Source: Candidatus Heimdallarchaeota archaeon (GTDB lineage Archaea > Asgardarchaeota > Heimdallarchaeia > JABLTI01). Taken from it: a stretch of DNA of 64,000 nt. This document shows, piece after piece, positions 3,851 through 34,100 of this stretch; the stretch's first letter is position 1, and each line of letters starts with the position of its first letter. The position numbers and the translations under genes were made by a program. The notes below the pieces were generated by a model that did not search any database, was not told the DNA's origin, and worked only from the letters and a program-made list of their open reading frames with translations. The stretch covers positions 32,001 to 96,000 of the forward strand of contig JAHLVW010000015.1 of the NCBI GenBank assembly GCA_019058275.1, in the 5' to 3' direction.

Positions 3851-5056
3851 TTAAACCCAATCGCCAGTTTCAATTTTTGTTGGCAGATATTCTTCAGTGA
3901 AAAACTTAATACCACGACTTGCTAAAGCTTGAATTTCTGCTTTTTGTTTAGTATCGATCATTAGCTTAAGTTCTTTTATCCATTCTGATCGTACTTTTAC
4001 GAATTTTTCCTCCATCATTAACTTGGCTCGTGAAATGTCCATTTTACTCATAGGTAAACGACAATTTTGAGGTAGATTATATTTGTCCAAATCTGAAGGT
4101 CTTACACCTAACCATTTAATATCTGGAGTTGCTAACTCATATGATTCGTAAGATAAAGCTTTACTACCCAAACCATAAACTCTTAGAATATCCAAACCAT
4201 AAGGATCAGAATCCATAATAGCAAAAACTGGTAATTGTAATTCATGACTCATTCTACGCAAGAAAATCCTTGTTGCAACATTTGGTTGACCACTGCCTGT
4301 AAGAATTACACAAGGATATTTCTCGTAAAACTTATCTTCTGCTAATCTTAGAAAAGCTGCTTGTTTCTCCACTACTAGAATAAATTCAGCATCAGATTCT
4401 AAATCACTAATGTGATCTTGCATTGGATTTACATTTTTCCCACTTGACCCTTGTTTTGTACAATCTATTAAATCACCATTGTCTCTATAAGAAACTCTAC
4501 CTACAACTAAACCTCGATCATTTGCTGTAACATGGATATTTTTTCTATAAGTACCAAGCATTGCTGCACTATCTTCTATTAAGGGGTCGCTACCACGATT
4601 CTGATCCTCAAAAAGTGCAACATCAGTATAGAAAACTTCTCTTTTACTACCATGAATGCCTAGTTCTAAAAGCTCGTGGATTATCTGCAAAACTCTTAAT
4701 TGTGCAGTGAATTTCTTTATAGTACTTATATCAGCCCATTTTCTATCTAGATAATTTTGTCCTAGAAGTAGTAAATCTGATTCTTCATCATAAATTACAT
4801 TACTTGCACTTCTAGAAGGTACTTTTAATATTGGAGTTCCAGAATTTATAGTATCAACAAATACCTTTCTAAAAACTTCTTCAATTCTTCTCATGCCTTC
4901 TTCTCTACTAATTTCAGAAATTTCATGTATACCTTCTGGAAGATCTTCGATTTTCCTTCTGGTTGTTTGTTTGAGAATTTCTCTTTCCTTTAGTATGGAT
5001 TTGATTTTTGTTACTGGAACCTGTTTATGTTTTTTCTTTGTTTGTCTACTAGACAT
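3851..5056 (-). CDS. top6A: DNA topoisomerase VI subunit A (Spo11 family)
   Basis: KREVFY catalytic Tyr region, VVEK, DSDPYG Toprim motif, KAEIQAL. Confidence 0.96.
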   Translation of the reverse strand: MSSRQTKKKHKQVPVTKIKSILKEREILKQTTRRKIEDLPEGIHEISEISREEGMRRIEEVFRKVFVDTINSGTPILKVPSRSASNVIYDEESDLLLLGQNYLDRKWADISTIKKFTAQLRVLQIIHELLELGIHGSKREVFYTDVALFEDQNRGSDPLIEDSAAMLGTYRKNIHVTANDRGLVVGRVSYRDNGDLIDCTKQGSSGKNVNPMQDHISDLESDAEFILVVEKQAAFLRLAEDKFYEKYPCVILTGSGQPNVATRIFLRRMSHELQLPVFAIMDSDPYGLDILRVYGLGSKALSYESYELATPDIKWLGVRPSDLDKYNLPQNCRLPMSKMDISRAKLMMEEKFVKVRSEWIKELKLMIDTKQKAEIQALASRGIKFFTEEYLPTKIETGDWV

Positions 5057-5126: not shown

Positions 5127-8100
5127 TTAACTCGTTTGACCCTCTAATTCAGCTATTGTTTTAAACGAACGCATAATGTGTTTTCTTATTGCTTTAACTG
5201 TTTTTACACCTAAACCCTTCACTGAAGATGTTTTAGCAATTTTAGCACTATGAAATTGCTTTACTGTATAAATACCTATAGAGTTGAGATCTTCTTTAAT
5301 TGCATGTGTAATATGAGGTAAAACTTCAACAGATAACATCTTTCTTATTTCAATGATATCCTTCTCACTTATTCCTTTAATGTTAGCCAATCTTGCAATG
5401 TTCTTCCTAAAGATATCACTAACAGTTTTTACACCAACTTTAGCAAAACGCTCTTCAGTTGTTTTACCCATACCAGGTAATTTGCTAATTCTAAGAGCTG
5501 AAGATAGTAATCCTTTAGGTGGTCCTCTAACAGCTTTTTCAACTACTTCTGTATCTGATTTTGGTTTTTTAGTACCTAAGAATTCAGCTATGGATGTATC
5601 TTTAGGTATCTCAACTTTCTTGGTTTTTGTTGAAGGTTTTTTTGCATGGGCACCAAGTTTCTCTTGAACTGGTTTTGGCTTAGCTTTTGGTGCTGGTTTC
5701 TTAGTTGTCTTCCGTTTTGGAACAGTTAGAGAACCAGGTGTCATCAATAATTTTTCTTCAATATCAAGCTTTAATTTTGTAATTGTAGGTGATCTTAATC
5801 CTCTTATGTTTGTAAGACTATCATCTTCCGCTTCCAAAAATTGACCGACTGTAAAAATTTCCATAAGGTTAAGATCCCTTTTGCCCTCAAAATTAATTCG
5901 TGGAAGAACAATTACATCAGTATTTGCTCTATTTGTAGATATTGTTTTTGCACCTAATCCCTTAATCTTTAACAAACGGTTGTTGGCAACCATGTAGAAT
6001 TTACCTACTGATTCAATGCCCTTGTCTTGCAATCTTTGGGCCATGGTTTTTCCAACACCTTCAAGTTCAGTTAGTGGTGCATCTACATCTAAGAATCCAG
6101 GTGGAGGTGAAGGTACTTTTACTTTGGTAGGTCTAATAATTTCATCTTCTTCTGAAATTTCTTCAACACTTTCTTCACTCATAGCTTTTCTTAATTCTTC
6201 AATATCTAAATCTAGGTTTAATTTAATTAAAGAAATGAGAGACGAAACCCTATCAGTAGAAAGACCATGAATATTTGAAAGTAATTTGTCATCTGCTTCT
6301 AAGAAATCTAAAACGCTATAGATTTTCTTTTCATGTAATGCAGCAATGGATTTCACTGTTACATTAGGCATAACATCAACATTGCATTTTGATTTGAGTT
6401 CAGTAATAACACCTAAAACGAGATTGCTTTGTGTTAGATCTAGATTTGATGTTAAGAAGAACTCTTTGACATTCCTAATACCACGCATTCTTAATGCTTT
6501 TTGTGTTGCTGGGCCAACACCTGGTAAAACTGAAACATTATCAATTGCATTATATAGATTCATTCCATCAATAATACCTCTTTCTTTAGCAAATTCGTCT
6601 AAAGCTTTTGCACTAGCGGATTCTACCAATTCATCTTTAGCTAGTTCAGGTAGTTCAAGGATTGCTCTTAGAATTTGTTCAGCTTGATCTGAAGCTTCTT
6701 CCGACATTCCTAACGAAATCAATTCTTGCGTTTGATCTTCATCAAGTAAAACTAAATCTTGAAGGGTTTGGATATCATATCGTTCTAGATTAACACCTTC
6801 TATCGAATCCATTGGTAAAGCTTCTACAGGAATTGGGTTCTTTGGTAAAAAGATTGATCCTTCTCGTTGTCTTAAACAATTAGAGAATTGTGTTGAACTG
6901 AAAAGAAACTGAAAATCTTCTTCTACCATTTTCCCTATCATAAGTCCTACAATTGAAGTAGCAGTAGGAGCATATTTCTCAAATATTTGCATTCTTTTGG
7001 CTGCTTGTTCTCTTTTCTTCAAAGCTCTTTGAAACTTCATTAGTTTCCTTCCAGCTTTTTGCAAGCAAAGCCTTAGCTCTTTTCTGATCTCATCTACTTC
7101 TGCAATGTACTCTTTGCTAGTTTCTGGGAATGGTATTTTTGTACTTACCAATGATACCGCAAAAATCAATGGATCGTTATTTAAATTCGTTTTATAATTT
7201 GACCAATTGATGCTTTCAATTGTTTTCTTAATTAAGTCATTACCTTCACCAAAAAGTAAAGGTATTCTATTAGCAAACCTAACTAGCTTGTAAGGTGGTG
7301 AAATTTCTTCTCCGCCATATCCAATAGCAACTTCAACTTGAAAAGCATGTCCACTATAACTTGATGGAGGTCTACCTTCTGAACATGTAAACTCGGGCTT
7401 ATATACATCGTTCAATCCAGCTTCTAAATTAGAATGACCAAGAGGTGACAAGCATTTTCCATCTGGTGGGAAAAATCTTGCTTTAGTGAATCCTTCATGA
7501 ATTAGTCTTCTTAATTCCATTTCATCTAATTTCTTTGGATTCTTTGAGACTGATATTTTAGAGATTCTAAGGACTTCAGAGGCAGTTTTTTCTCCTATTC
7601 TTTGGAAGTGGGTTTTAAGGAAATCCTTCATGGTTGTACATCTAGTTCTAGAGATTTCACTTTTCAATTGATTTATATCAGTACCTATTGGATGTAAAGG
7701 AACTTCAATAGGTGGATCGGGTATTACATCAACTGTACGTGAATGAATAATAGGTTCTTCAAGATTATCGGGAGTAATAATACTAAAGGAAGCATAAGGT
7801 GTGACTACAGCCATTTCCTCGAAATACTCGAAAACGTATCTTTTGGATCTACTCCACGTGCCAGCAAAACAAACTGATACTTCTGTTCCATGTCCTTTTA
7901 ATTGATCCTTTGATTTTCCAGTATATTTCTTTTCTTCCACAATTTCTGGAGCATTTTTGACAATATCGATAAATAATTTATAATGACTTGTAGTTTCTGC
8001 TGGTTTCTTCTTGGAAAGAGCTAAACGTGATTTAATTTCAAATGGTACTCTAATAGTAGATTGAGAGTAGATTAAGACCATTTTTGCACCTAATCCAAAT

Positions 8101-8474
8101 CTTCCGCGTGATTGTCGTTCACCATAATTTGAACCTGTTAAAACTCTGCCAAAAAGTTTGGGAATATCAGCATGACGAATACCTATTCCGTTATCACGAA
8201 CTGAGAGTCTAATAAACTCACTAGTTGCGTCTTCATCTACTTGATAATCATCTAAACCCATTAAATCGCCAATCTCTTCTGGAGGCATTAGCTCAATCTT
8301 AATTTCAATATCAGGTAAAATGCTACCCTTTTCTGCAGCATCGAGTGCATTCTCAACTAGTTCTCGAATACTAGTATAGGTAGATCTAGTAGGATTGTCA
8401 AAACCAGCTATCGCTTTATTAGCTTCAAAGAATTCTGCAGCAGACCGTTCTATTATTTTCTCACGCGCAATCAT
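5127..8474 (-). CDS. top6B: DNA topoisomerase VI subunit B with a long C-terminal multi-HhH extension
   Basis: ELVENALDA, DNGIG, SRGRFGLG GHKL motifs; RFANRIPL and KIPFPETSKE transducer; adjacent to top6A. Confidence 0.95.
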   Translation of the reverse strand: MIAREKIIERSAAEFFEANKAIAGFDNPTRSTYTSIRELVENALDAAEKGSILPDIEIKIELMPPEEIGDLMGLDDYQVDEDATSEFIRLSVRDNGIGIRHADIPKLFGRVLTGSNYGERQSRGRFGLGAKMVLIYSQSTIRVPFEIKSRLALSKKKPAETTSHYKLFIDIVKNAPEIVEEKKYTGKSKDQLKGHGTEVSVCFAGTWSRSKRYVFEYFEEMAVVTPYASFSIITPDNLEEPIIHSRTVDVIPDPPIEVPLHPIGTDINQLKSEISRTRCTTMKDFLKTHFQRIGEKTASEVLRISKISVSKNPKKLDEMELRRLIHEGFTKARFFPPDGKCLSPLGHSNLEAGLNDVYKPEFTCSEGRPPSSYSGHAFQVEVAIGYGGEEISPPYKLVRFANRIPLLFGEGNDLIKKTIESINWSNYKTNLNNDPLIFAVSLVSTKIPFPETSKEYIAEVDEIRKELRLCLQKAGRKLMKFQRALKKREQAAKRMQIFEKYAPTATSIVGLMIGKMVEEDFQFLFSSTQFSNCLRQREGSIFLPKNPIPVEALPMDSIEGVNLERYDIQTLQDLVLLDEDQTQELISLGMSEEASDQAEQILRAILELPELAKDELVESASAKALDEFAKERGIIDGMNLYNAIDNVSVLPGVGPATQKALRMRGIRNVKEFFLTSNLDLTQSNLVLGVITELKSKCNVDVMPNVTVKSIAALHEKKIYSVLDFLEADDKLLSNIHGLSTDRVSSLISLIKLNLDLDIEELRKAMSEESVEEISEEDEIIRPTKVKVPSPPPGFLDVDAPLTELEGVGKTMAQRLQDKGIESVGKFYMVANNRLLKIKGLGAKTISTNRANTDVIVLPRINFEGKRDLNLMEIFTVGQFLEAEDDSLTNIRGLRSPTITKLKLDIEEKLLMTPGSLTVPKRKTTKKPAPKAKPKPVQEKLGAHAKKPSTKTKKVEIPKDTSIAEFLGTKKPKSDTEVVEKAVRGPPKGLLSSALRISKLPGMGKTTEERFAKVGVKTVSDIFRKNIARLANIKGISEKDIIEIRKMLSVEVLPHITHAIKEDLNSIGIYTVKQFHSAKIAKTSSVKGLGVKTVKAIRKHIMRSFKTIAELEGQTS

Positions 8475-10296: not shown

Positions 10297-10707
10297 TCAA
10301 TCTTTGATTTTTCTTAATGCATCTGCAGCCCATGATCTAACTCTAATGTCATCGTCTTCCAAAGCAATTTTAGTTAATCCAGGTACAGCATTATCTGAAC
10401 CAATATTACCTAATGCAACTGCTGCTTCTAATCGGACACCAACTATTCGATCTGTTTCAATTGTTTCCAATAAGGTCGCAACTGCTTTTTGAGCTTCTTC
10501 ACCTAGATCACCTAAAGCTGCAGCTGCTGATGAACGAACTAATGAATCTCGATCTTCTTTTAGAAGCCTAGCAAGTTCCTCTACAGCTTCTTTAGCTTTT
10601 ATTTCACCTAAACGTGATGCAGCTCGTGATCTCACCAAGCCGTCTCTGTTTTTTAAATTTCTAAGAAGTTGACTAAGCTGCTTCTCATCATAACTCAATA
10701 TTCTCAA
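10297..10707 (-). CDS. HEAT/PBS-lyase repeat protein
   Basis: Four VR..AA..L repeats (VRSRAASRLG, VRSSAAAALG, VRLEAAVALG, VRSWAADAL). Confidence 0.88.
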   Translation of the reverse strand: MRILSYDEKQLSQLLRNLKNRDGLVRSRAASRLGEIKAKEAVEELARLLKEDRDSLVRSSAAAALGDLGEEAQKAVATLLETIETDRIVGVRLEAAVALGNIGSDNAVPGLTKIALEDDDIRVRSWAADALRKIKD

Positions 10708-31137: not shown

Positions 31138-34100
31138 GTGAATAACTCGGACAAAAAATTGAAAGTGAAACGAAAAATGAAGAATAGAATATTTAAAATC
31201 TCAACTGCCATGCTTTTCATTACTTTATTTGTAATGAGCAGTTATTCCCTGGCTAATATAAAGGGTTCAATTACTGAAACAGAGCCCCTTATTGCCGATA
31301 GAATATATACAGCTTCTAATTATATAGAGGGAATTAACTTGCATCCTATGAGGAGCAATGCAATTGGGGTTAATATGGAATTAATAGGTGGAAGTGTAAA
31401 TCTGCCATTTGATTTAACTACCTATAATAACTTACTTGGTTTTCAACTTGTAATTTCAAACCAAAGATTATGGCGAGATCATGCTCAAAGAAGATTTTGG
31501 GATGTTTCTGATGGTGCAACTATGCTCTTAGTTTTCAGAGGACTTACACTTGATGATGCAAAAGAAGACGCAAGAGAAATCAAACTTATGATGGAAACAC
31601 TCTATGGGTTATCCTTACATCTTGTTTTTGGAGAATGGGACAATGGTGACAGATTAGCTGTTTTTGTCTTTCAAGGACATGTTTCTGTTGGAGCTTATGA
31701 ATTATTTATTGATGAATTTGTTAGTTATGTACCAAATGCTGGCTTTGGCAAAGGTCTAACCTCTTCAGTTCTTGTCAATTCACCTGTAAAAGCTATGGGT
31801 ATTGGCTTATTACATGAAAGATTCCCAATTCCTGGCATAGGTATCACAACAGAATGGATTCCAATTTTAAGTGCAGCTTGGATTGATCCTGATGGTTTAA
31901 TCAAAGATGGAACACAAGTTGATATGAATCTTACGAACATCATGCCAAGTATTGGTCCTATAGAAGGTGCAGCATATGCAACTGCAAGTGTTGTTACTAT
32001 GAAATTACCTTATGTTGTTGATGTTCTTGAAATAGATCCACGAACAGACAATATGTATCCTCACCTTAAGGGTTACTTTGAATGGGTAGTGAAAGTAAAC
32101 TTACCATTGTTAAATTGGTCCTTAGAGAGATCATATGATGATATTTATGTGAAATATGACTTTAACTTAACTGATATGCAGAACTATCCCCAAGTAATAG
32201 GAGAAATGTCATTAGATTCCACATTACCAATAGATGGTTCAGAAGACTTAGTATGTAGCTTCACTTTTGAAAATGTTGATGATACTGAACCTGCCTATGA
32301 CATAGAATTAGCATATGGTGAATTCAAAAATAAAGACTTGGATGGTTTCACAGCTTTAGTTAACAATCCTGAATTAACATTTAATGATGCTAAAGAAATG
32401 TATTATAATGCTACATCTCAAATCTTAACTGATACAGTTATACCATTAGGTCCTCCTGAAATTGTTAAAATTACTGGTTGGTTCTGGAACAGTACAGGAA
32501 CTGCTGATTGGTTACGAAATAACCAAATTGTACTTCCTGAGGAGTTTGATAATCCTGAACAATTCATATATGTCGAAAAAGAATTCCTGCAATTGGATGA
32601 AATGGACTTTACACTAGAAAACTTGACAGATGCTAATGGTACATTGACTGGTTATTCAACATTGAAAACTACTATCCCAGTATTGAATCCAGGTGAAAAT
32701 GTTACAAAGAAATTTGCAATGCGCGATCTTCCAACAGGTAACTTTAATGAATATGTAGCTATTGAAAATACTACAAATGACTTCAGTATAATACTTAATG
32801 CAACTCACAGTTGGGAAGATCTCTTTATAATTATGATGCAACTCTTTGGTTCATCTCTGCATATTCCTGAAGATCAAGTAACATGGACTAACTGGTTCCC
32901 AGAACCAGTAATTGGATCAGCTTTTGTCTACAAAGACGGAGATGATAAGGAATATATGGGTATGACAAATGGTCTTGTTTTACAAGTCTACGATGATGAA
33001 GCAATTCTTGTAGGCAAAGTATCCTTAGATAAAGATGTATATCGATTTGGTGATAACACTACTTTTACTCTGGAGTTAACAAATATTGGAAATGCTAATG
33101 CAACTAATGTTAATTATAGTTTCTACCATGCATTTGTTACTGATGACCTTGAACTAGCATATATAGAGGAAATTGAAGATAGTGATGGTGTAATTAGCAT
33201 AATTGAACCTCTTGAAACTGTTACAAGAAATTATACAGTACCAGCAAGAACTCACATAGGTTTACATCCAGTATTCGCTATGTTCAATTATACGAGTGAT
33301 GAAGCTGATGATCCAACATATGATATTTTTAGTGCTTGTGATCATCCTGCGGTTTTAAGCTCAATGGATTTTGGCATTGTTTTGCCACCTCTTAATAAGG
33401 AACAAAATCAAGAACCAACATATCCAACACCAGAAGTAGAAGTGACTATGGATATTATAGGTTACGAAGAAAATGTCACAGAAATTGGTGATGAGTTGCT
33501 AATCAGGTATACTATTACCAATATTGGTGATGAAGACACCAACATAATATTTATCCAAAGATTTCCAATTGACGAAGTTTCTGGTACAATACTCCTAAGA
33601 CCAGTAAATGATGCAGATGAAGTTAATGTTACCGTAGATGGAGTTCCTTTCACTGATTATGATATTATTTGGGATCCAAACAACGAGCCTAATGATATTG
33701 GTATGCCAGTAGCAGCACTCGCTGATGAGATCATCAACTGGCGTGGAGCTCATGGTATTCCATTAGCTGTTGATGAAACAATGGTGATTGAATTTGCAGT
33801 AGAGGTGAATACTGCAGGAGAAATCTATCTACCACCAGCAGAGATTCGATACAGAAGTGAATATGAAATACCAGAAACAAATGCAGTTAATGAAGAACGT
33901 TCTACAGACACAGAAACTGCTGGTTCACCTGCAGGTCTCATTGCTGCATGTGATTTACCAGAGGAAATTGCATCTGTTCTCACACCACAAGTAGATCAAG
34001 AAGATTTTGCTGGTCAAAGTTCTACCAATTCTTGGGGATCCTATTCCGAAAGCTTATCCCTAGCAATTGCTGAATTAGCTGGTACTGGATTAAACTTCCT

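Follow-up and report, generated by a model that had tools for sequence, protein, structure and literature searches.

Does the outsized B subunit of topoisomerase VI (Topo VI) encoded by a Heimdallarchaeial genome carry a DNA-binding arm of its own and, if it does, what could this arm contribute to the enzyme? The question is posed by the top6B gene found in a window of 64,000 nucleotides (the whole stretch of DNA analysed here) from Candidatus Heimdallarchaeota archaeon, which corresponds to positions 32,001 to 96,000 of contig JAHLVW010000015.1 in the GenBank assembly GCA_019058275.1. The original prediction, made from the letters of the window, held that the Top6B protein is prolonged after its transducer domain by about 570 residues with some seven tandem helix-hairpin-helix units, (HhH)2, resembling the N terminus of RadA, and proposed a domain scan and an AlphaFold model as a check.

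In archaea, Topo VI serves as the decatenase, and the Spo11 complex of meiosis descends from it; the way in which it selects and holds DNA is still under study. The enzyme is reportedly distributive, and its contacts with DNA are said to be made through short loops of the B subunit. Canonical archaeal Top6B proteins comprise ~530 amino acids (aa) in S. shibatae and 621 aa in M. mazei, the latter with an immunoglobulin-like (Ig-like) C-terminal domain.

A Topo VI B subunit prolonged by (HhH)2 modules

The top6B gene encodes the B subunit of a type IIB topoisomerase, in which an intact core is followed within the same protein by an (HhH)2 array (Table 1). It is recognized by the two NCBIfam equivalogs for Top6B, PRK04184 (490 bits over residues 3-516, cut-off 274) and TIGR01052 (400.6 bits, cut-off 380.7), and Pfam places HATPase_c at residues 35-137 and Topo-VIb_trans (PF09239) at residues 337-493 (E 2.8e-50). 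The Bergerat motifs ELVENALDA, DNGIGI and GRFGLGAK (N, G1 and G2 boxes) are unchanged across all 27 full-length orthologues that we collected, as is the transducer segment ETSKEYI, within which we infer the switch lysine to lie. Past the end of the equivalog match the protein continues for ~600 aa; the span of the original prediction, positions 5127-6850, corresponds to residues 542-1115, for which its figure of about 570 extra residues is right.

We confirmed that this extension, hereafter the arm, consists of six (perhaps seven) RadA-like (HhH)2 modules fused to the C terminus of Top6B, giving a protein of about twice the normal length. The domain scan and the modelling proposed at the outset both bear this out: Pfam HHH_5 matched four stretches of the protein (E 8.4e-26, 90.7 bits, cut-off 27), and the units were modelled by AlphaFold as HhH domains. 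Pfam also retrieved RAD51D_N (E 4.5e-12, three stretches), IMS_HHH_1 (E 6.7e-12) and further matches on the arm that include alpha-CTD and TfoX_C. In an AlphaFold2 model built from the alignment of the 27 orthologous tails, the arm forms three confident blocks (residues 640-757, 789-914 and 984-1112), with a predicted local distance difference test (pLDDT) of ~80-90; every block repeats one secondary-structure pattern twice, and the stretches between them (758-788 and 915-983) are disordered. The third pair folded alone (residues 984-1115) reached a pLDDT of 91.5 and a predicted template modelling score (pTM) of 0.83. According to DSSP analysis of the models, the arm contains six units of ~57 aa arranged in three A-B pairs, each unit with the five-helix layout of (HhH)2 domains. 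Type A units (1, 3 and 5) open with the canonical hairpins LPGVG, LEGVG and LPGMG, respectively; in type B units (2, 4 and 6) the first hairpin is degenerate (MPNVT, LPRIN and LPHIT) and the second hairpin is of the form G-L-x.

Similarity scores for A-A and B-B comparisons are 52-78, versus 21.7 +/- 4.9 for shuffled sequences, and pair-to-pair alignments show 28-35% identity across ~100 residues, indicating that the A-B pair is the repeat that multiplied. This is compatible with a local triplication of the pair, of which it is no proof. The original prediction had paired only the last four units; pairs do exist, but they take in all six. The peptides that it quoted are all present in the translated open reading frame (ORF). 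Its linkers were also confirmed, with PPPG (788-791) ahead of pair 2, PPKG (983-986) ahead of pair 3 and the Lys/Pro-rich tract between these two pairs. As for the count of about seven units, six are confidently folded and detected by a hidden Markov model (HMM) of the units, but the seventh, at residues 549-606 (u0), is a mere match of position and pattern. Its sequence pattern (ALPMDS...DIQTLQDL...LGMS) falls where the giant Top6B proteins described below have their first arm unit. With an HMM independent E-value (i-E) of 3.7 and z values of 0.3-2.1 in alignments to that first unit of the giants, it did not hold as a supported HhH domain and is listed only as possible.

Table 1. Layout of the top6B-top6A locus, in positions of the window, with the parts of Top6B in order from its N terminus
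Feature	Top6B residues	Position	Strand	Remarks
Whole top6B gene	1-1115	5127..8474	(-)	Single stop-free ORF, 1115 codons plus stop
Top6B core: GHKL ATPase, H2TH, transducer	1-516	6927..8474	(-)	NCBIfam and Pfam matches
Post-transducer segment	517-548	6831..6926	(-)	Conserved; pLDDT <50
Possible degenerate seventh unit (u0)	549-606	6657..6830	(-)	Net charge -12; helical, pLDDT ~72
Acidic segment	607-640	6555..6656	(-)	Helical at low model confidence; net charge -5
HhH pair 1 (A, 641-696, with LPGVG; B, 697-755)	641-755	6210..6554	(-)	Unit HMM 63 + 60 bits; pLDDT 80-89
Acidic flexible linker 1, PPPG-ended	756-794	6093..6209	(-)	pLDDT <50; net charge -6
HhH pair 2 (A with LEGVG and KGLG; then B)	795-909	5748..6092	(-)	Unit HMM 69 + 68 bits; pLDDT 82-91
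Lys/Pro-rich basic linker 2, PPKG-ended	910-989	5508..5747	(-)	Net charge +14, 11 Pro; disordered in model
Short motif KDTSIAEFLGTK, PIP-box-like	958-969	5568..5603	(-)	Inside variable linker 2
HhH pair 3 (A with LPGMG; B with KGLG)	990-1104	5163..5507	(-)	Unit HMM 73 + 72 bits; each unit net +7
top6A partner, 401 aa		3851..5056	(-)	70 nt downstream of top6B; Pfam TOP6A-Spo11_Toprim E 2.7e-62, TP6A_N E 4.3e-15

The likeness to the N terminus of RadA, also claimed originally, is evident at several levels. The best named sequence match of the arm is the NCBIfam RadA model, positions 4-54 of which align to residues 993-1043, and the octapeptide LPGVGPAT of unit 1 is identical in the N-domain of the RadA of the same genome. 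Likewise, a search of this genome with the unit HMM retrieved Top6B (E 1.8e-121) and then, as the best match other than Top6B, RadA (E 8e-6). Fold comparisons of individual units with ~48,000 representatives from the PDB (alignments of 61-65 residues, root-mean-square deviation (rmsd) of 2.0-3.2 Å) retrieved the thumb of Dbh/Dpo4 (Z 6.8, rmsd 2.1 Å over 63 residues), the RAD51D N-domain (Z 5.7), the AF1548 C-domain (Z 5.6), the Rad51 N-domain (Z 5.1) and, both with Z 4.9, Hef (HhH)2 and the RNA polymerase alpha C-terminal domain (alpha-CTD), and the HhH parts of DisA, NusA AR2 and Pol X were also among the matches. With a single-pair model, Foldseek gave probabilities of 0.99-1.00 for RadA/RAD51 and Dpo4 and of 0.97-1.00 for the families overall, at E above 0.02. 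The sole PDB sequence matched by the tail profile up to E 0.01 was the HhH domain of Hef (E 0.0044). No match at E 0.001 was found for the whole arm with Foldseek against the PDB, because its modules are flexibly linked, and every structure match in the Atlas had a TM score below 0.5.

The arm is an integral and constrained part of Top6B

The refuting observation envisaged with the original prediction was a tail encoded by a separate gene in relatives. We found the tail in the same frame as the core in the 27 orthologues (1074-1162 aa, 67-82% identical), which derive from mutually independent assemblies (NCBI, JGI, ENA and Logan), and no strong free-standing homologue. The tail is present in the ten genomes of the same genus that were searched (some matches being counted with single stop codons), and same-genus contigs spanning both parts hold it within the Top6B frame, in open frames of 1108-1155 aa. 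An exhaustive profile search of 1.84 billion representative sequences for free-standing tail genes retrieved nothing beyond the 50% cluster to which the protein itself belongs, five short fragments and weak matches to HhH domains in general. The one fragment of the five that was checked as a stand-alone tail, P0125, comes from the edge of a contig of 1.6 kb and is followed by a probable top6A gene, indicating that it is a truncation.

Selection was assessed from the ratio of nonsynonymous to synonymous substitution rates (dN/dS) among close orthologue pairs, with 92-95% aa identity. Values were 0.03-0.06 for the core, 0.04-0.10 for residues 517-640 and 0.07-0.09 for the three HhH pairs together; pair 2 alone, with 0.00-0.03, is the most constrained part of the protein, and the linkers yielded 0.15-0.57 (linker 1, 0.33-0.57). 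The region 517-640 shows 83% identity to the orthologues and linker 2, except for a short motif, 47% identity among them. The five G-h-G hairpins are particularly well conserved in the 27 orthologues, with G652/654, G806/808, G839/841 and G1001/1003 invariant and G1087/1089 nearly so. The arm is also polarized in charge, from an acidic part near the core (residues 549-640, net about -17) to a strongly basic far end, and the A-type units and pair 3 have isoelectric points of 9.6-10.4.

The source genome is a metagenome-assembled genome (MAG) of 4.12 Mb, 92.8% complete, and its estimated contamination of 6.8% would favour an artefactual long frame, produced by faulty assembly or by reading through from one gene into the next. 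We consider this hardly conceivable and reject it: the uninterrupted frame is common to the orthologues from all four sources of assemblies, genomes of the same genus keep the tail in the Top6B frame where a contig spans both parts, purifying selection extends across the junction of core and tail, and the short stand-alone match that was checked is a contig-edge truncation.

Giant Top6B proteins in sister families

The other Heimdallarchaeial families sampled contain a single Top6B match, in an open frame of 2258-4305 aa where the contig is long enough. We read three of these giant frames (4184, 2314 and 3468 aa), and each is followed by a top6A gene of 468-470 aa; the first of them is an ORF of a complete genome (L012:2312-14866). 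In databases, the giants are labelled plainly as 'Top6B'. In a maximum-likelihood tree of the Top6B core (quick search, with the Shimodaira-Hasegawa-like approximate likelihood ratio test, SH-aLRT, as only support), the clade of the window Top6B is sister to 11 giants, forming an arm-bearing clade of 16 rows with an SH-aLRT of 98. The arm thus characterizes the native Top6B lineage of the Heimdallarchaeia.

The arms of the giants may contain homologous units: an HMM made from the units of the window protein only detected 10 units per giant with i-E below 0.01 in the first round, and 19-21 after iteration. Collinearity of the arms was considered and discarded, because Blast comparisons of the window arm with the giant arms gave only scattered unit-level matches (best E 0.002). 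Units of the window protein score at least as high against one another (52-78) as against units of the giants (41-69). Both forms have the top6B-top6A gene order and an arm that begins directly after the transducer. However, the window arm, of ~600 aa and 6-7 units, has a third to a sixth of the length of those of the giants, and is distinguished by long disordered linkers. They differ also in their hairpins, since the window arm contains five G-h-G hairpins in 595 aa and the giants only 0-1 in 1800-3660 aa.

Among 151 Asgard genomes, the ~1115-aa form of Top6B was found only in the genus of the window, and it is the shortest known form of the Heimdallarchaeial arm; Top6B frames elsewhere in this set are of ~500-830 aa, with one of 993 aa. 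In two genomes of an Asgard family outside the class (G058 and G068, family f19), the Top6B transducer matches lie in frames of 2286-2293 aa, and each genome also has a second match. Giants may hence exceed a single class of the phylum.

A second Topo VI and the distribution of GyrA

The genome encodes a second, tail-less Topo VI operon at about 8995-11640 of contig C36 (L009:241-2883, minus strand), which is 96 kb long and has the same G+C content. Its Top6B (497 aa) and Top6A (375 aa) are 37% and 28% identical, respectively, to the pair of the window. Of the ten same-genus genomes, nine encode this second Topo VI, and so does the only other genus that the family contains. Outside the genus, its nearest relatives are proteins from Bathyarchaeia (~50% identity), with which the short Top6B paralogue also groups in the tree (SH-aLRT 89), and these affinities make a lateral acquisition likely. 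Several Topo VI paralogues per genome seem in fact widespread in Asgard archaea. Genomes of the Asgard families f10, f11 and f16 commonly show between two and four matches to the Top6B transducer.

A search for GyrA (PF00521) gave no match in any of the 12 genomes of the window family (GyrB was not searched), versus matches in 28 of the 29 genomes of other Heimdallarchaeial families. Genomes with a giant Top6B combine GyrA with one Topo VI, whereas in the window family GyrA was not found and there is a second Topo VI. This contrast involves a single lineage and so amounts to one event, without statistical weight. In all, the window family presents a distinctive combination of no gyrase found (in the search for GyrA), two Topo VI enzymes and a short arm with canonical hairpins. 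The C-terminal region of Top6B has been described as its most variable part, with C-terminal domains (CTDs) tied to the presence of gyrase (PMC9348778), and an arm in a family with no GyrA found is at odds with this proposal of CTD-gyrase co-evolution in its simple form. In one of the genomes (G025), GyrA is encoded on the contig of top6B, ~2 kb upstream of that gene.

A conserved motif in the second linker

The variable linker 2 contains a motif (residues 958-969) that is essentially invariant among orthologues, with the consensus K-D-x-[ST]-I-A-E-[FY]-[LI]-G-T-K, inside the Lys/Pro tract; D959, I962, A963, E964 and G967 show no changes. Comparison of DTSIAEFL with the consensus of PCNA-interacting peptides (PIP), Q-x-x-[ILM]-x-x-[FWY]-[FWYL], shows that I, F and L fit and that the flanks are basic, with an Asp in the position of the Gln. 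The evident C-terminal PIP boxes of the genome are QSTLESFF, QSKLDSWF, QTSLFDFI and QASISSFL, and the giant Top6B of 4184 aa ends with a similar sequence, KQTTLDEIS, behind a basic Lys/Thr/Pro tract.

Complex prediction with the 248-aa PCNA of the genome and residues 940-988 of Top6B scored 0.46, versus 0.19 for the best control, and was graded as weak support; contact agreement between runs was at least 56% and the pLDDT of the partner at least 42. Among 80 solved complexes, 58 attained the mark used, as did 2 of 110 mismatched pairs; with scores of up to 0.60, those that attained it were only seven of the 80 solved complexes and both passing mismatches. The pass may also reflect memory, because PIP-PCNA complexes have already been solved. 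Binding of the motif to PCNA is accordingly only a speculative lead, which we would place at about one in four. The genome contains two PCNA homologues, one of 248 aa (C69:12237-12983; L015:1489-2235) and one of 268 aa with a basic N-terminal extension (C95:4404-5210; L016:1417-2223).

Possible function of the arm

Tandem HhH modules on a topoisomerase have a well-known counterpart in Topo V of Methanopyrus kandleri, a type IC enzyme in which a topoisomerase core is likewise followed by tandem (HhH)2 domains, 12 in this case, and whose HhH domains bind DNA (PDB 8DF7). However, the catalytic classes are unrelated, because the N-terminal half of the window protein is a Top6B, of type IIB. Topo V (8df7) was the top row of the whole-arm Foldseek search, although a weak one (E 0.027, TM 0.09), and it was absent from the PDB matches of the tail profile up to E 0.01. 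Topo V is best regarded, then, as an analogue of the arm and not as a demonstrable relative. The RadA/Rad51 N-domain (HHH_5, RAD51D_N) resembles the arm in sequence, fold and the LPGVGPAT octapeptide, but the arm carries this domain six times in tandem on a topoisomerase and without the recombinase ATPase. Canonical archaeal Top6B proteins have the same core domains and the same site of lineage-specific C-terminal additions; their addition consists of one or two helices or an Ig-like domain, whereas that of the window protein is an HhH array. The beta-pinwheel CTDs of GyrA/ParC and the plant proteins BIN4/RHL1 offer a functional analogy only, as extra DNA surfaces that flank the gate or act in trans, and their folds are unrelated. 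The original prediction had the arm perhaps replacing accessory factors such as BIN4/RHL1 and serving in DNA wrapping, processivity or repair, roles that would be conjectural.

From the sequence and the models, we put at roughly 60% the probability that the arm is a sequence-independent holder of double-stranded DNA acting in cis on a working Topo VI. In the structures from S. shibatae and M. mazei, the C terminus of Top6B is located where the transducer ends at its base, close to Top6A and to the DNA gate, so that two flexible arms per heterotetramer would start beside gate DNA. HhH hairpins reportedly bind the DNA backbone in a non-specific manner. Each arm has an acidic portion near the core, three rigid modules of two domains each, with disordered linkers between them, and a strongly basic distal third made up of the Lys/Pro linker and pair 3. 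Its G-h-G hairpins would touch the phosphate backbone as in RadA/Rad51 N-domains, the thumbs of Y-family polymerases, Hef/XPF and Topo V. The two arms of the A2B2 enzyme could hold it on DNA, or else grip the DNA flanking the gate or a second duplex, and the outcome might be a higher affinity, processivity or the capture of crossings. Most of the holding would correspond to the basic far end, perhaps with a tether to PCNA.

Several observations weigh against such a role in DNA holding. Z values of 5-7 for a helical domain of 60 residues are indecisive alone, and values below 8 are common, so the call of an HhH fold rests on the agreement among fold families and on the Pfam significance, not on Z alone. 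In the B-type units the first hairpin is degenerate, and those of pairs 1 and 2 are acidic or neutral in charge. Strong acidity also marks the third of the arm nearest the core, with a net charge of -12 in u0. Besides, HhH, SAM and alpha-CTD folds also serve in protein contacts, and the ancestral role of the arm may not have been binding to the DNA backbone, because the giants are almost without G-h-G hairpins.

These points bring in the possibility that the arm is mainly a scaffold or spacer for protein-protein contacts, docking replisome, chromatin or segregation proteins (PCNA included) and thereby siting Topo VI. The persistence of the fold in giant arms nearly devoid of G-h-G would agree with it, as would the fold neighbours that bind proteins (alpha-CTD, NusA AR2 and SAM domains), the resemblance of the invariant linear motif in the disordered basic linker to the PIP boxes of the genome and, weakly, the prediction with PCNA. 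Nevertheless, we think a scaffold rather unlikely, because the hairpins of the window arm are canonical and invariant and its distal modules basic, which is the look of a DNA binder, the motif does not have the glutamine of PIP boxes, and a weak pass in complex prediction is more often wrong than right. The charge polarity suggests, on the other hand, an auto-regulatory arm, in which the acidic part (549-640) would act as a DNA mimic, or shield either the basic far end or DNA surfaces of the core until engagement; residues 517-640 are indeed constrained like the core, though poorly modelled. Being purely inferential, and compatible with DNA binding rather than exclusive of it, this mechanism strikes us as decidedly improbable. 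A contribution of AP/dRP-lyase (apurinic/apyrimidinic and deoxyribose phosphate lyase) chemistry, as reported for the HhH domains of Methanopyrus Topo V, would fit the general likeness in having (HhH)2 domains in tandem on a topoisomerase, the position of Topo V as top row, however weak, for the whole arm, and the lysine-rich units. We hold it to be very improbable, since neither the sequence nor the profile of the arm shows a specific likeness to Topo V and the structural match is minimal in TM, a catalytic lysine is not assignable from sequence, and the closest relatives, RadA-type N-domains, are not lyases.

A DNA-holding arm in cis could be extended to a division of labour between the two Topo VI enzymes of this lineage, in which no gyrase was found. 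The tail-less, Bathyarchaeia-like enzyme would carry out general relaxation, and the armed one, native and on the eukaryote side, would with its PIP-like motif be a processive decatenase coupled to the replisome and clamped to DNA and PCNA, with the arm as a cis forerunner of the DNA-binding partners that act in trans in eukaryotic Topo VI/Spo11 complexes. We advance this fuller scheme as quite an unlikely one. If true, DNA holding by the arm would represent a new route by which a type IIB enzyme gains DNA affinity or cellular targeting, in the archaeal class nearest to eukaryotes. The 1115-aa form offers a practical entry to the arm-bearing group, owing to its expressible size, modules separated by linkers and canonical hairpins amenable to mutation, and the tail-less paralogue of the same cell is an internal control for the armed Top6B.

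In the searchable surveys and reviews of Topo VI (subscription-only papers lay outside the search), we found no description of HhH tails on Top6B. Asgard Top6B was credited merely with a 'globular domain' by Villain et al. 2022, and the corresponding entry in Brinkmeier et al. 2022 is merely 'CTD +'. What is new here is the compact variant of Top6B, with canonical hairpins and a pair structure, together with its tail-less paralogue in the same genome and the contrast in gyrase.

Genomic neighbourhood and minor observations

The top6B-top6A genes have housekeeping neighbours, with a class II aminoacyl-tRNA synthetase gene upstream and genes for nucleoside diphosphate kinase and aIF5B downstream. 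The Top6A partner shows the Tyr in REVFYTD and an acidic DSD cluster, which are features of the 5Y-CAP and Toprim domains. The first ~45 codons of this top6A gene (3851-5056, minus strand) encode a Lys/Arg-rich N-terminal extension that is not present in such form in the paralogue of contig C36. Also on the minus strand of the window, at 10297-10707 and between the tRNA synthetase and MobB-like genes, there is a gene for a protein of 136 aa composed only of repeats of the HEAT/PBS-lyase type. Lastly, the RadA/Rad51-type recombinase of the genome (C117:43636-44892, plus strand) shows, in its stop-to-stop frame, ~100 Lys/Glu-rich residues before the HhH N-domain.

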